Below the pieces are notes generated by a model. The model did no database searches, was not told the origin of the DNA, and worked only from the letters and a program-made list of their open reading frames with translations. This document shows positions 17,016 through 21,816 of a DNA stretch of 64,000 bases, in pieces. The DNA comes from an uncultured Parabacteroides sp. (GTDB lineage Bacteria > Bacteroidota > Bacteroidia > Bacteroidales > Tannerellaceae). The translations under genes and the position numbers were made by a program. Each line of letters begins with the position of its first letter. Within the stretch, counting starts at the first letter, position 1. The stretch lies in the NCBI GenBank assembly GCA_944325355.1, contig CALUZS010000015.1:12758-76757 (forward strand), in the 5' to 3' direction.

Positions 17016-17527
17016 GATGATAACAGTCTGTTGAGCAGCCCCTGGCAGCAATCTTCCAGCAAATCGAGTACAAGTTCAAACCCGGACGCTCCGGAATAAT
17101 AGGGATCGGGGATATAATCGTAGAGTTTGTTGGTGGCGTATTCCGTCATTTGATGGATTTTTGCCAACGATTCCAAGTCGGGAGCCTTCGCTTTCAGGTC
17201 GTCTATGTTGCGATCGTCCATGCCGATGATGAAGTCGAAGGTGTAGAAATCCGCGCCTGTTATGGGGCGCGATATGGATTCGAGCACGTAGCCCCGGCGG
17301 ATTGCGTGCGCTTTCATCCGTGGATCTGCCGGTTCCCCTTCGTGGTAGGCAATAATTCCGGCCGAGTCGATGAAAAAGGAGCTGTCTGCTCCGGCATCCT
17401 TTACCAGTTTTTTCATGATAGCTTCTGCCGATGGTGAGCGGCAGATATTGCCCAGGCATACGAAGAGTATCTTGTATTCTTTCTGTTTTGTTTCTGCGGG
17501 AAAGTCGTTGTTCATAATATGTATCAT
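17012..17527 (-). CDS. Low molecular weight protein-tyrosine phosphatase
   Basis: Active-site CLGNICRS, IDSAG, IPDPYY; alternative start 17515. Confidence 0.93.
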   Translation of the reverse strand: MIHIMNNDFPAETKQKEYKILFVCLGNICRSPSAEAIMKKLVKDAGADSSFFIDSAGIIAYHEGEPADPRMKAHAIRRGYVLESISRPITGADFYTFDFIIGMDDRNIDDLKAKAPDLESLAKIHQMTEYATNKLYDYIPDPYYSGASGFELVLDLLEDCCQGLLNRLLSS

Positions 17528-17578
17528 GTTGTTCCTTGTTCGATAATTATATGGTTTTTATATATTGCTTGGAATACA

Positions 17579-17634
17579 TTACAGCGGGTCTACGTCGTAG
17601 TGGATAATGACTCCCGGATTTCCGGGAAGTCATT
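17579..17634 (-). repeat. Direct-repeat remnant of the priA 3' end (copy of 19351-19407)
   Basis: 17579-17604 identical to 19351-19376 (26 bp); extended diverged match encodes NDFPEIR-(1-nt deletion)-VIIHYDVDPL* versus priA NLFPDSRQVIVHYDVDPL*. Confidence 0.9.
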
Positions 17635-17703
17635 ATCTTTTTATATTCTTATCCAGCAACAAGTATCTCAGAATTAATTACCATTGTATATCATAGCATT
17701 AAA

Positions 17704-18216
17704 CTAATAAATCTCTCGAATCCACCTTTCTTTATCAGACATACCCCATTGCACATGCCATTTACGACCATCCGTTTTATCAATTAAGATGAACTGATAC
17801 ATGTTTTTCGTTGGATATAATTCGAATGAACTAGGAACATCGCTCAAGAAGTCATGGGACAAAACTTCATCGTTTATAGTAACCGAACCTTCATTGTCAG
17901 CATCCAAAGACCATTGCACTTGTTCTATCCGTCCTGTCTGTGTATCCAGTTGTAATAGGGTATAGATATTTTCCGTTGGATATAACTTGTAACGTTCATT
18001 AAGAAGAGATGTATTTTCATCTATGAGATCTGTATTTATTTCAAGATAAGTTAATAGTTCGTTGTTAATAGCCATGAGTGTATCAATCTTTGCAAGGAGG
18101 GCTACAATCTTTTCTTCTTGATTTCTAACTGTCTCCGAAGGAGGATTCTCGGCTGTTTGCGCTATTCCAGCAAACGGCAATAATATCAGGATTAAAAATA
18201 AAAATGTATGTTTCAT
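17704..18216 (-). CDS. Hypothetical secreted protein with an internal duplicated motif
   Basis: Signal peptide MKHTFLFLILILLPFAGIA; two copies of LYPT.N.Y....D...GR...VQW. Confidence 0.8.
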   Translation of the reverse strand: MKHTFLFLILILLPFAGIAQTAENPPSETVRNQEEKIVALLAKIDTLMAINNELLTYLEINTDLIDENTSLLNERYKLYPTENIYTLLQLDTQTGRIEQVQWSLDADNEGSVTINDEVLSHDFLSDVPSSFELYPTKNMYQFILIDKTDGRKWHVQWGMSDKERWIREIY

Positions 18217-18243
18217 TAGTCTTAAGCCTTTAAAGTTCCTAAT

Positions 18244-18507
18244 TTATAGATACCAATTATCCAATATCTCTTGCAGCAGAGATTGCGCATACTTTATAGC
18301 TTCTTCTTCTGGAATTTCTGTACGTTCGTCATATTCCCAGTCAGTTTCAAATTCCATGTCTACTAAAACTTGGGCTTCTTCCCGTTCAAAAGTCTTTGCC
18401 CACTTATTAAAATCATCCGAGTCTTCGACTTTAAGATTATGAATAGTATTAGTAAGATATTCTACTAACCATTCATTTAACTCGTTCTTAATGTTAATTG
18501 ATTTCAT
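18244..18507 (-). CDS. Small, highly acidic hypothetical protein (87 aa)
   Basis: ATG ORF co-oriented between HU-like gene and secreted protein with 27-37 bp gaps; 23 D/E versus 8 K/R. Confidence 0.65.
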   Translation of the reverse strand: MKSINIKNELNEWLVEYLTNTIHNLKVEDSDDFNKWAKTFEREEAQVLVDMEFETDWEYDERTEIPEEEAIKYAQSLLQEILDNWYL

Positions 18508-18544
18508 AATTAGTCTGTATTTAATTAATATGTAGGAAAGCTAT

Positions 18545-19021
18545 TTATTCGCCGGAGGGCTCTTCGTCAGGCGGTGTGACAAGTCCCTTTGCCTTGCGGT
18601 AGGATGCCATTGAGCCGTACTTGATGCCATCTTCCACTACGCCTTCGGCTTCGAAGGTTGCCGATGCAAGGGCGGCTTTCAGCTCCTTCGACGGCGTGAA
18701 GATGAACTTCGCGTTCTTAATCATCGTCTGTGCATCGAATTCTTCGATGTTTGTCACGCCTTTCGACCCGAACGACAGGCGCAGCTTGCCTAAACCTCCG
18801 ATAGTCACACTCACGCCGCGCAGGATGGCAGGCGTGAGCTTCTCGCTCGACACTTCCATCACGTGTTTGAACTCGCCTTTCGAGAGCGTTGTGTCTGCCA
18901 CAGCCAGTGCCGCAGTCTCGTCCGCATCGAGCGAGCCTTTCGATGCCGGGGCTGCGTACCACAGTTGTTCGTCTTTTCTGATGGGATTCACCCGTTTCAC
19001 TAAGTTGTAATTCGCTTTCAT
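18545..19021 (-). CDS. HU/IHF-like (histone-like, HU-HIG type) DNA-binding protein
   Basis: N-terminal KRVNP...WYA, VSVTIGGLGKLRLSFGSKG, FIFTPSKELK typical of Bacteroidetes HU-related proteins; start trimmed to MKANY (ORF track 19057). Confidence 0.85.
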   Translation of the reverse strand: MKANYNLVKRVNPIRKDEQLWYAAPASKGSLDADETAALAVADTTLSKGEFKHVMEVSSEKLTPAILRGVSVTIGGLGKLRLSFGSKGVTNIEEFDAQTMIKNAKFIFTPSKELKAALASATFEAEGVVEDGIKYGSMASYRKAKGLVTPPDEEPSGE

Positions 19022-19070
19022 TTCAACCTCCTCTTTTAAATTGTTTATGTTAGGCAATCGGTTATTTCCG

Positions 19071-19232
19071 GTTCCTTAGGCGGGCAGCTCAAGCCACCCG
19101 CCTGGCTAGTTTAGGCTATCCAGTTGGGTAAGTTTAGCTATCCGCCTGGATAGCTCTGGCTACCCATGTGGATAAGTTTGGCTATCTACCTGGGCAAGTT
19201 TTGCTATCCAGTTAAGGAGTTTGACTTACCCT
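19071..19232. repeat. Tandem array of ~7 palindromic 22-bp units (consensus GCTATCC-N4-GGRTAAG-TTTR)
   Basis: Unit starts at 19093, 19115, 19137, 19159, 19181, 19203, degenerate 19225 and 19071; unit at 19137 is a perfect GCTATCC-gcct-GGATAGC. Confidence 0.85.
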
Positions 19233-19235
19233 GCT

Positions 19236-19243
19236 TAAATATA
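19236..19243 (-). promoter_or_regulatory. Possible variant -7 box (TATATTTA) for the HU-like gene
   Basis: One mismatch to TAnnTTTG, immediately upstream of the 22-bp array. Confidence 0.35.
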
Positions 19244-19350
19244 CGGCGTATCTGCCGGATTGCCAAATAAAGAAGCAATAAAATGCGATATTTTCTATAT
19301 GGCGCGTCTTGTTTGCCTGCCTGCGGTGAAAGGTTGCGGCTCGGGGCGGT

Positions 19351-21816
19351 TTACAGCGGGTCTACGTCGTAGTGGACGATGACCTGCCGGGAGTCGGGGA
19401 AGAGATTCATCTCCTTTTGCGCCTTGTCGAGCAGCTCGCGCACAAGGTTCACCGAGCTGTTCACCTCCAGCTTCAGCAAAATGGTTTTGATGTACAGCGT
19501 CTGTACGCGGCTCACCGGCGGAGTGACCGGTCCCAGCACCCGGCTGCCGAAGCTTTGCCGGAGCTTCCCGGCGTAGGTCGCGGCGAAGCGGTTGAGCAGT
19601 GCTTCGCTGCGGCTGCGCAACACCAGCGAGATTAGCCGGAAATAGGGCGGATAGCGGAACGCCTTCCGTTCCGTCATCTCCTCCCGTACCATGGAGGTGT
19701 AATCCATAGCCAGCACCTTTTGGATGAGCGGGTGTTCGGTCTGCCGGCTCTGTAACACGACCGTGCCGCGTTTGTCGCCGCGCCCTGCGCGTCCGCTGAC
19801 CTGCACCATGAGCTGGAAAGCCCGTTCGTGGGCGCGGAAATCGGGGTAGTTCATCAGGCTGTCGGCATTCAGGATTCCGACCACGTGCACGTTGCGGAAG
19901 TCGAGCCCCTTGGAAATCATTTGCGTCCCGATGAGGATGCGGATTTCGCCGCTCCCGAAGGCTGCCAAAATCCGTTCGTAGGCGTTTTTCGTCCTTGTGG
20001 TGTCGGTGTCCAGCCGTGCGGCAGGGGCGCCGGGGAAAAGCTCCTTCACGGCTTCCTCCACCTTCTCGGTCCCGAAGCCCAGCATTTGCAGCTCTCCGCC
20101 GCAATCCGGGCAGGCGCGGGGCATCGGTTCCGTGTATCCGCAGTAGTGGCACGCCAGCGCGTCGTGGCGTTTGTGGTAGGAAAGGCTCACATCGCAGTTG
20201 AGGCATTTGGGCACCCAGCCGCAATTCTTGCATTCGATGATAGGGGCGAATCCGCGCCGGTTCTGGAACAGTAGGACTTGCCCCGTCTCGGTGGAGAGCG
20301 TTTCCCGTATCTTTTCGATGAGGACGGGCGAGAACAGCGGATGTTTCATCAGCCGTTTCCGTCTTAGCTCCTTGACGTCTGCCGCGATTATCTCGGGCAG
20401 CAGCGTGCTGCCGTACCGTTTTTTCAGCTCCACCAGCCCGTATTTCCCGCAATGCGCATTGTAGTACGACTCGATGGACGGCGTGGCGGAGCCCAACAGC
20501 GTTTTGGCTCCGTGCATGCAGCCCAGCACGATGGCGGCGTTCCTTGCGTGGTAGCGCGGAGCCGGGTCGTGCTGTTTGTACGACGGGTCGTGCTCCTCGT
20601 CTACGATAACCAGCCCCAGGTTGCTGAAAGGCAGGAAGAGCGACGAGCGTATTCCTAAGACTACAGCCGGCTCTTCCCGGTGCAGCAGCTTGTTCCAAAT
20701 CTCGACCCGTTCGTTGTTGGAGAAGCGGGAATGGTAAACAACCAGCTTGTCCCCGAAGTGGCAGGCAAGGCGTTCGGTCATCTGGGTGGTTATGGCTATC
20801 TCCGGGAGCAGGTAGAGCACCTGTTTCCCTTCCGAGAGCATTTCCTCAATCAGGCGGATGTATATCTCCGTCTTGCCGCTGGAGGTGATGCCGTCCAGCA
20901 GGCAGACCTCTTTCTCCTCGAAGGCTTTCTTTATGGAGCGGAGCGCATCCTCCTGCTCGTCCGACAGTGTGGCAGCCGCCCGGCATGGGGCGGCGTTGTA
21001 GTTTTGCAGCCTGCTGACCTCCTTTTCGTAATACTCCATGATGCCGCGCTTCACCAGGCTGTCGAGGATGGCAGCAGCATGTCCGCTATGTTCCAGCAGC
21101 TCTTTTTTGGAGCACTCATTGGGCGTCCCTTGGTTTGCAGCCCCGCTTAGGTCGAGGTAGACGGTCAGCAAATCCGCCTGTTTTCTGGCTCTTTTCAGCT
21201 GGTCGAGCGCGAGGTGCAGTTGTTCCTCGGAGCGGTATGCTTCCGAAAGGCGGACATACTGCACGGTTTTGGGCGTGAATCCCTTCGCCAGGTCCTCGTT
21301 CAGCACGATTGCCCCGTCCGACATGAGCCGGCTCAACAGGGGGAGGATGTTTTTAATGCCGGTGCACCGTCCCAGTTCGGAGACGGTCATCCGTTTGCCT
21401 TCCCCAAGGCTGTCTAATAAGAGTTGCTCGTTTTGCCGGAGCGGCTTCGCTGCCTCGTAGTGGCTGTTTAGCGTTACAGCCGTTTCGCTTTCCAGCTTCA
21501 GCCCGGTAGGGAGGGCAGCTTTATAGACATCGCCCAGCTTGCAGAGGTAGTAAGATGCCAGCCATTGCCAGAAGCGCAGTTGCGTCTCCCTGATGATGGG
21601 CGCGGCGTCCAGCAGGGCAAATATCTCCTTCAGTTCATAGTCCGTCTGCGGAGTTTCGTCGGTTACATGGAGGACAATCGCCGTGTAGTAGTGCTTTTTG
21701 CCGAAATGGACAACGACACGGCATCCCGGATGGACGCTTTCCTCCAGGTCTGCGGGAATGCGGTAGGTATAACTGTTCTCCAGCGGCAGGGGCAGGATTA
21801 CTTCGGCATATCTCAT
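19351..21816 (-). CDS. priA: Primosomal protein N' (replication restart helicase)
   Basis: MRYAEVILPL start, GITSSGKTE, DEEHD, Cys-rich CKNC/CLNC/CHYC/CPDC, GTQMISKGLDF, QVSGRAGR, ends YDVDPL; start trimmed from 21846. Confidence 0.96.
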   Translation of the reverse strand: MRYAEVILPLPLENSYTYRIPADLEESVHPGCRVVVHFGKKHYYTAIVLHVTDETPQTDYELKEIFALLDAAPIIRETQLRFWQWLASYYLCKLGDVYKAALPTGLKLESETAVTLNSHYEAAKPLRQNEQLLLDSLGEGKRMTVSELGRCTGIKNILPLLSRLMSDGAIVLNEDLAKGFTPKTVQYVRLSEAYRSEEQLHLALDQLKRARKQADLLTVYLDLSGAANQGTPNECSKKELLEHSGHAAAILDSLVKRGIMEYYEKEVSRLQNYNAAPCRAAATLSDEQEDALRSIKKAFEEKEVCLLDGITSSGKTEIYIRLIEEMLSEGKQVLYLLPEIAITTQMTERLACHFGDKLVVYHSRFSNNERVEIWNKLLHREEPAVVLGIRSSLFLPFSNLGLVIVDEEHDPSYKQHDPAPRYHARNAAIVLGCMHGAKTLLGSATPSIESYYNAHCGKYGLVELKKRYGSTLLPEIIAADVKELRRKRLMKHPLFSPVLIEKIRETLSTETGQVLLFQNRRGFAPIIECKNCGWVPKCLNCDVSLSYHKRHDALACHYCGYTEPMPRACPDCGGELQMLGFGTEKVEEAVKELFPGAPAARLDTDTTRTKNAYERILAAFGSGEIRILIGTQMISKGLDFRNVHVVGILNADSLMNYPDFRAHERAFQLMVQVSGRAGRGDKRGTVVLQSRQTEHPLIQKVLAMDYTSMVREEMTERKAFRYPPYFRLISLVLRSRSEALLNRFAATYAGKLRQSFGSRVLGPVTPPVSRVQTLYIKTILLKLEVNSSVNLVRELLDKAQKEMNLFPDSRQVIVHYDVDPL

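Follow-up and report, generated by a model that had tools for sequence, protein, structure and literature searches.

Plasmid iterons, such as those of the R6K gamma origin, pPS10, RK2, P1, and F, are units of 17 to 22 bp with a spacing of about 22 bp, which the adjacent Rep product binds and through which it autoregulates. In the centromere or operator arrays of small partition and repressor proteins, such as ParR-parC of R1 and pSK41, omega of pSM19035, and ParG, the binder is a ribbon-helix-helix protein with a partition NTPase as its partner. The REP/BIME elements of enterobacteria are 35 to 40 nt long, irregularly spaced, present in hundreds of copies, and tied to RAYT, and the RIB/RIP type binds IHF. 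HU-family proteins are textbook non-specific nucleoid proteins, and we know of no function assigned to the HU-HIG paralog expansion of Bacteroidota, which reaches up to 22 members per genome. The BrickBuilt elements of Porphyromonas gingivalis are 23-nt minisatellites or miniature inverted-repeat transposable elements (MITEs) with promoter activity that occupy 19 intergenic loci, and one of them, BrickBuilt_14, adjoins the HU-family gene PGN_0872 (Klein et al. 2015, PMC4596501). Burroughs et al. (2017, PMC5499826) described HU-HIG as a lineage-expanded, fast-evolving Bacteroidota clade, argued that its members are unlikely to be sequence specific, and found no conserved gene linkage; upstream arrays are not mentioned there. 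Here, we describe a tandem array of 22-bp palindromic units in the leader of an HU-HIG gene of an uncultured Parabacteroides sp. (assembly GCA_944325355.1, 2.62 Mb, referred to as G000, with its contigs given C numbers). The array lies in a stretch of 64,000 nt of contig CALUZS010000015.1 (positions 12,758 to 76,757), which is called the window below and whose own numbering is used. The arrangement is that of an operator- or iteron-like array paired with the gene of its putative binder, but with an HU-fold protein and palindromic units, and on balance we read the array, with moderate confidence, as phased, same-face binding sites for an HU-HIG dimer that autoregulates its own gene.

The array occupies positions 19071 to 19233, with no strand assigned, as determined by Tandem Repeats Finder, a repeat search, and alignment of the units in register. 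Read on the plus strand, each unit consists of a 7-nt arm (GCTAYCC), a 4-nt center, a second 7-nt arm (GGRTARN), and a 4-nt T-rich linker, and the units abut, six of them being clear and one or two degenerate. The clear units start at 19093, 19115, 19137, 19159, 19181, and 19203, and the six units aligned in register read GCCACCC gcct GGCTAGT ttag, GCTATCC agtt GGGTAAG ttta, GCTATCC gcct GGATAGC tctg, GCTACCC atgt GGATAAG tttg, GCTATCT acct GGGCAAG tttt, and GCTATCC agtt AAGGAGT ttga. The array also includes a degenerate unit at 19071 and ends in a half-site, GGGTAAG, on the minus strand at 19226 to 19232. Tandem Repeats Finder reports a period of 22 with 5.0 copies (19101 to 19210) and a second period of 44 with 2.2 copies and 78% matches, and the repeat search of the locus gives start-to-start spacings of 22, 22, and 22. 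The centers (gcct, agtt, gcct, atgt, acct, and agtt) fall by turns into a gcct type and an agtt type, which accounts for the 44-bp super-period. The dyad symmetry of the units joins the arms GCTAYCC and GGRTAGC, with 16 of the 24 arm cells being Watson-Crick pairs, which places this array among the less perfect of the 33 arrays compared below. The array is far beyond chance. The initial annotation, made from the letters of the window, had given the same six unit positions and the exact 22-bp period, all with correct coordinates, and had described conserved arms around variable 4-nt centers; both descriptions hold, and the alternation of the centers is added here. It had also set CRISPR aside, which is confirmed: the units abut, only the 4-nt centers and linkers vary, and there are no unique spacers, and therefore the array is not a CRISPR.

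In the Bacteroides promoter layout, a -33 element, TTTG, is followed after 19 to 21 nt by a -7 element, TAnnTTTG. In a motif scan, a candidate -7 box that fits this consensus, TATATTTA, was located on the minus strand at 19236 to 19243, where a possible -7 box had already been noted at 19236, and a candidate -33 element, TTTG (19264 to 19267, minus strand), lies exactly 20 nt upstream of it, within the right arm of an inverted repeat described below, so that the pair has the -33/-7 layout. The array starts 13 nt past the -7 box, and its other end lies 50 nt before the HU-HIG start codon at 19021, on the promoter side. With a Bacteroides-type promoter 13 nt upstream, the array would lie in the leader DNA of the HU-HIG gene. 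The motifs alone suggest a transcription start near 19230, from which the array probably spans approximately +5 to +160 of a leader of approximately 205 nt.

Whether such arrays accompany HU-HIG genes in general was assessed at two scales. Within the genome, an autocorrelation scan (same base at distance p in stretches of 66 nt, p of 19 to 25, score of at least 41) returned 8 loci over threshold in the whole 2.62 Mb, four of which are low-complexity repeats within coding sequence (periods of 21 or 24). The four non-coding loci are the array of the window, C6:131056-131165, the start of contig C18, and a weak repeat at C5:155492, and two of these four lie directly upstream of HU-HIG genes, against an expectation of approximately 0.004 (3 × 412 nt of upstream sequence). 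The C6 array consists of four units of TACCC-ATRYAW-GGGTA (TACCC-N6-GGGTA) with a 24-bp period, located 30 nt upstream of the second HU-HIG gene (C6:131027..130660), and its palindrome was found nowhere else in the genome. The third HU-HIG gene of the genome (C11:38019) has no array. As separate observations, C18:1-110 carries five perfect copies of the weakly palindromic 22-bp unit GCTCTGTGACATGGTCGTCAAG at the very start of the contig, and no HU-HIG gene lies close to the weak repeat at C5:155492-155584, which has a 22-bp period and approximately four units around CCTATCGAT.

Across a sample of 64 HU-HIG loci from five Bacteroidales lineages, in which an array was defined as at least three to four tandem palindromes with a period of 21 to 24 bp within 300 nt upstream, arrays were present at 39 loci, each with its own palindrome. 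The periods were 21 bp in 8 arrays, 22 bp in 19, 23 bp in 11, and 24 bp in one. Arrays precede two of the three genes in this genome, 15 of 16 in Parabacteroides relatives (periods of 22 to 23 bp), six of nine further genes in the genome G017 (private arrays), 14 of 34 in two unrelated Bacteroidales genomes (G098 and G109), and both of two orthologs from metagenome-assembled genomes (MAGs). In G098 and G109, the arrays are confined to HU-HIG subclades of approximately 200 amino acids (aa) and are absent from a subclade of approximately 140 aa. The private palindromes of the Parabacteroides relatives include CTACAC-N4-GTGTAG, AAACCTG-GG-CAGGTTT, GACACTTACGTATGTGTC, AACATATATATGYT, ACTCTATAGAGT, AACTCTTAAGAGTT, TTCACCATGGTGAA, and CTACATTATAATGTAG. 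The palindrome is specific to the paralog, with related half-sites among orthologs, and the array of the window follows this pattern. In the literature searched, no pairing of phased palindrome arrays with HU-HIG genes was found, and nothing relevant was found on REP-like repeats in Bacteroides or Parabacteroides or on HU-like tandem palindromes.

The initial annotation had held that its proposal would fall if the period or the arms were not conserved upstream of homologous genes, and the opposite is seen, as orthologs with 89% to 64% identity keep the array. A 22-bp array of related half-sites precedes the orthologs in the MAGs of "Candidatus Bacteroides intestinipullorum" (89% identity) and "Ca. 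B. intestinavium" (76%), in G011/"Ca. Parabacteroides intestinigallinarum" (68%), and in G092 (65%), G057 (64%), and G077 (62%); the ortholog loci with related half-sites include L064, L080, L024, L091, and L092. Two homologs with 67% identity (G077:C97 and G057:C8) carry AAACCTG-GG-CAGGTTT instead, and in distant paralogs the period and the dyad symmetry are kept and the palindromes differ. In a count of 91 units of this unit family from seven genomes, arm pair 6/13 is C-G in 61, A-T in 21, and mismatched in 9, which shows that both sides change together, and in every dispersed array of G011 both half-sites have switched from CC/GG to AC/GT, the A-T form dominating each. Pairs 5/14 and 4/15 vary independently, so these positions are degenerate (Y and R). 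The arm-pair counts give CTRY[C/A]C as the predicted half-site, and the 4-bp centers are array specific and probably not read.

The gene downstream of the array (18545 to 19021, minus strand) encodes a 158-aa protein that is assigned to the HU-HIG family by PF18291, TIGR01201, an AlphaFold2 (AF2) model, and a fold match to 4FMR. The PF18291 match (E = 3.6e-18, 66.3 bits against a cutoff of 26.2) covers residues 1 to 124, and the TIGR01201 match of 56 bits falls under the 68.6-bit subfamily cutoff. A search of PDB sequences with the single sequence gave no match, and a profile built from 18 homologs did match solved HU and IHF chains from end to end with E of approximately 1e-9. The AF2 model, which was built on an alignment of 18 sequences and replaced a 4-sequence model with a predicted local distance difference test (pLDDT) score of 61, has a mean pLDDT of 90. 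In the model, strands at residues 2 to 11 and 19 to 25 precede the two HU helices, strands at 122 to 135 follow the core, and among PDB folds the HU-HIG protein BVU_2165 (4FMR) matches best, with HU and IHF next. The protein is thus modeled as an HU/IHF fold with the extra N-terminal beta-hairpin typical of the HU-HIG clade, which is basic (KRxNPxxK), and an acidic C-terminal tail. It belongs to the same clade as the proteins treated by Burroughs et al. (PMC5499826), with 4FMR as its fold match, but the arrays described here point to sequence-specific binding. HU-HIG proteins are not covered in a later preprint on HU/IHF specificity. A phage origin of the protein was considered and rejected, as no tblastn match was found in 50,697 phage records.

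From these comparisons, we infer the identity of the binder and the stoichiometry, cooperativity, start site, and sign of regulation in the following model, in which approximately seven dyad-symmetric sites with the half-site CTRYCC would be the cis partner of the adjacent HU-HIG gene. One HU-HIG homodimer would bind each palindrome, and the center-to-center spacing of 22 bp, or two helical turns, would place all dimers on one face of the helix, allowing cooperative binding and the formation of a higher-order nucleoprotein stretch. Occupancy of the array, from approximately 5 nt past the predicted start to approximately 50 nt before the start codon, would block or stall RNA polymerase and result in negative autoregulation. 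Three other loci of this genome carry arrays with these half-sites, referred to here as orphan arrays, which would be further docking platforms for the HU-HIG protein or dispersed copies. The proposal of phased sites for an HU-like protein, which the initial annotation had made, gains strong, though indirect, comparative support from the arrays at homologous genes; it is supported in part, with the caveat that the same unit family also occurs at orphan loci.

Several observations weigh against this model. The tip of the modeled beta-arm is acidic (NIEEFD), and both the Arg-Asn-Pro motif and the intercalating proline that HU and IHF possess are missing from it, so IHF cannot serve as a template for the binding mode; the isoelectric point of the whole protein is 6.6. 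Shared descent alone would also make the gene and its upstream array diverge together. At the 33 HU-HIG array loci subjected to motif scans, candidate promoter boxes lie upstream of the array at some and between the array and the start codon at others, and no box was found at 11 of the 33 at the scan thresholds; the varying position of the box means that a single regulatory geometry is not established, and a fixed promoter position relative to the arrays was rejected. Most arrays of this unit family are orphans: among 26 of its loci from public genomes, 23 have no HU-HIG gene within the 8-kb locus and 3 have one. The expectation that every array-bearing genome holds an ortholog of the protein was rejected, as 7 of 10 have none at E ≤ 1e-30, and G017 contains at least five GCTACCC-type arrays, none of which lies beside any of its ten HU-HIG genes.

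The locus also bears marks of mobility. G011 and seven other related genomes have a low-molecular-weight (LMW) phosphatase gene (LMW-PTP) immediately after priA. In the window, 1.77 kb containing the promoter, the array, the HU-HIG gene, and two open reading frames (ORFs) separates the two, and therefore promoter, array, and gene are carried on an insertion. This islet is bordered on the left by a 26-bp direct repeat (17579 to 17604) identical to the last 26 bp of priA and on the right by the other copy (19351 to 19376), the 3' end of priA including the stop codon; no strand is assigned to either, and diverged similarity runs approximately 60 nt beyond the 26-bp duplication. The islet has no integrase of its own. 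The DNA similarity between the window and the locus of the 89% ortholog is restricted to 18585 to 19193, covering the gene, leader, and array, with unrelated flanks. Judged from these alignments, the promoter, array, and gene move jointly as one unit. The remaining cargo of the islet consists of two ORFs on the minus strand. One (18244 to 18507), located 37 nt downstream of the HU-HIG gene, encodes a very acidic, Trp-rich protein of 87 aa with no Pfam or NCBIfam match and lies outside the cassette shared with the 89% ortholog. The other (17704 to 18216) encodes 170 aa with an N-terminal hydrophobic segment and has no family match.

The orphan arrays are also the basis of a rival explanation, in which the array belongs to a mobile, self-expanding family of minisatellites or MITE-like repeats, comparable to BrickBuilt or REP/BIME, that spreads to many intergenic sites and may bring a promoter with it. 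The array would then owe its position to insertion or promoter donation and not to recognition. This genome has units of the GCTAYCC type at three further loci: C17:16270-16380, flanked by a tail-sheath-like gene and a convergent AlkZ-related gene; C17:19227-19275, where two units precede a truncated HxlR-like ORF; and C23:85-175, just past a 5S rRNA terminator. Their neighbors are unrelated genes (tail-sheath-like, AlkZ-related, 5S rRNA, and P-type ATPase), and the copies stand in both orientations relative to the neighboring genes. The unit family is found in approximately 10 of 79 species genomes of the genus, at several loci each, and in a scan of 185,579 species genomes the family turned up in MAGs of Parabacteroides, Tannerellaceae, and Bacteroides, chiefly from the guts of birds and other animals. 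Many orphan arrays in other genomes stand at non-orthologous positions, and the neighbors of the G000 orphan arrays were not found beside arrays in other genomes. The absence of an ortholog from 7 of the 10 array-bearing genomes and the homogenization of the centers within an array, as in minisatellites, also agree with this explanation.

In addition, the window array is bracketed by a 12-bp inverted repeat that resembles the terminal inverted repeats (TIRs) of such elements, with a left arm TTAGGCAATCGG (19050 to 19061, plus strand) and a right arm CCGGATTGCCAAA (19255 to 19267, plus strand), the latter containing the -33 TTTG. Both arms are present only at the window copy, which counts against a mobile family, and single arms accompany two of the three orphan arrays, where GATTGCC or GGCAATC occurs within 40 nt (genome-wide expectation of approximately 0.1 per kb). 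In the Tannerellaceae MAG Kf353_bin89, arrays lie inside a larger repeated element: at L057 56-402, L071, L076, and L078, they are preceded by three to four copies of GGACGGGAGCTATTT, and at two loci the common tail CATTGCGAGTACCCAATAAACTGCGTTTA comes after them, which suggests that these arrays are part of a composite, larger repeated element with a common head and tail. The window array resembles BrickBuilt in its occurrence in Bacteroidales, tandem units without spacers, dispersed intergenic copies (four loci in this genome), a variable number of units, a candidate promoter, and possible small inverted-repeat ends. Compared by description only, BrickBuilt differs in having a long conserved leader and tail, with no dyad symmetry or HU-like link described, whereas the window array has a 22-bp palindromic unit, short TIR-like flanks only, and a general link to HU-HIG genes; no long shared leader or tail around the arrays was seen in G000.

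The resemblance to REP/BIME and REPIN-RAYT lies in the dispersed, intergenic palindromic clusters, a species-specific consensus, and a GTAG motif, and some of those elements are bound by the HU-family protein IHF. The window array differs from them in its strict 22-bp phasing, its few loci, and the lack of a detected RAYT. The Y1 transposase family of RAYT (PF01797) had no match in G000, G011, G017, and 10 other genomes and one match in G057, and a REP/RAYT origin was rejected on its absence from the first three, which also speaks against a mobile family. A minisatellite further leaves unexplained why private palindromes stand before 39 of 64 HU-HIG genes with almost none elsewhere in the 2.6-Mb genome, and the C6 palindrome is unique to its own array. 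We consider the explanation by a mobile repeat alone unlikely, although it deserves to be taken seriously, and the two readings can be combined, as mobile arrays can also be HU-HIG sites.

Some observations made around these arrays are given here in their own right. A regulon of single sites was rejected: CTAYCC-N4-GGRTAG has 31 matches genome-wide, 11 of them in arrays, and its reversed control has 27, which puts single sites outside the four arrays at background level. Beside the two-unit orphan array of C17, a 1.4-kb AT-rich non-coding stretch (C17:17780-19230; L001 9780-11230) contains three modules of approximately 420 bp, each with a GC-rich hairpin and then a run of T at its minus-strand end (e.g., GAGAGGTCGCTGCAAGCGACCTCTTTTTTT); these modules could be small RNA or small peptide genes. 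Downstream of the same array, the HxlR-like frame (C17:19307-19570; L001 11308-11571) stops after 87 aa, has no Pfam match, and is probably a broken regulator gene. Outside Bacteroidales, Taibaiella soli (Chitinophagaceae; L073 76-300) carries approximately ten copies of a weakly palindromic 22-bp unit, GCTAYCCCTAAGTGTAGGTCYA.

The array could also act as RNA, forming a series of hairpins in a leader of approximately 200 nt that controls the stability, termination, or translation of the HU-HIG mRNA, as the initial annotation had proposed as its second option. The array lies downstream of the best promoter candidate and so is probably transcribed, the sense leader folds better than shuffled sequences (z = -4.8), and within the window array the G·U-type mismatches (5) outnumber the A·C-type mismatches (2). 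Antisense RNA folds even better (z = -5.8), and because both strands fold comparably, the leader fold is a by-product of DNA dyad symmetry. When the arm cells of 33 arrays oriented with their genes were tallied, 646 were Watson-Crick pairs and 116 were not, the latter comprising 32 of the G·U type on the sense strand, 45 of the A·C type (G·U on the antisense strand), and 39 others. Selection on a sense RNA helix would favor G·U over A·C, and thus 32 against 45 gives no RNA-strand signature. Many sister arrays are uninterrupted palindromes with centers of 0 to 2 nt, in which no hairpin loop is possible, and the orphan copies stand in both orientations. A scan of 17500 to 20500 with Rfam 15 (E ≤ 10) gave only chance miRNA and snoRNA matches, the miRNA models scoring 21 to 22 bits against gathering thresholds of 70 to 88. 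The balanced mismatches, the equal folding of both strands, and the loop-less sister arrays disfavor RNA hairpins, which we regard as very improbable here, and the comparison favors sites that would act as DNA.

If the units are DNA sites, their binder could be some other protein and the HU-HIG gene a bystander. The binder might be a different transcription factor, or the units might serve as iterons in replication or as a centromere in partition. Classical plasmid iterons have the same 22-bp period, and arrays exist in genomes that lack an ortholog of the window protein. As with iterons, the units recur every two helical turns beside the gene of the presumed binder, and binding with autoregulation would be expected. 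In iterons, winged-helix Rep monomers bind direct repeats at an origin that also contains DnaA boxes and an AT-rich region, whereas the window array has palindromic units, an HU-fold neighbor protein, a chromosomal location, and no Rep gene or origin features; its neighbors are the HU-HIG gene, priA, the LMW phosphatase gene, and the two ORFs that match no family. The arrays of ParR-parC, omega, and ParG are similar in that phased short repeats lie upstream of the binder gene and cooperative same-face binding forms a higher-order complex and represses the promoter, but these systems need a partition NTPase partner, and none is encoded at this locus. With no Rep, ParA, or ParM-type gene in the islet and a chromosomal site between priA and the phosphatase gene, the description of the array as iteron- or centromere-like, taken in the strict sense, fails. 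Moreover, dozens of private palindromes would need dozens of factors, and diversified HU-HIG paralogs are always present in cis. A binder other than the HU-HIG protein is likewise, in our judgment, very improbable.

Binding of the array by the adjacent HU-HIG protein has a wider counterpart, in which HU-HIG proteins would be sequence-specific array binders, each paralog co-evolving with its private set of 4 to 7 palindromes spaced by two helical turns, with the promoter-array-gene cassette being mobile and some arrays having spread as orphan docking sites. We put this forward tentatively, as a proposal that is plausible but falls short of probable. The locus adds evidence for joint movement of promoter, array, and gene, orphan arrays with the same half-sites, and arrays in genomes without the ortholog, the last being counterexamples for which any model must account. 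The private, helically phased arrays before most of these HU-HIG genes provide a concrete candidate DNA target for each paralog. If the proposal is true, HU-HIG proteins would constitute a new class of sequence-specific HU-fold regulators or chromosome organizers in the dominant order of gut bacteria and, together with their arrays, a set of naturally orthogonal protein-operator pairs.

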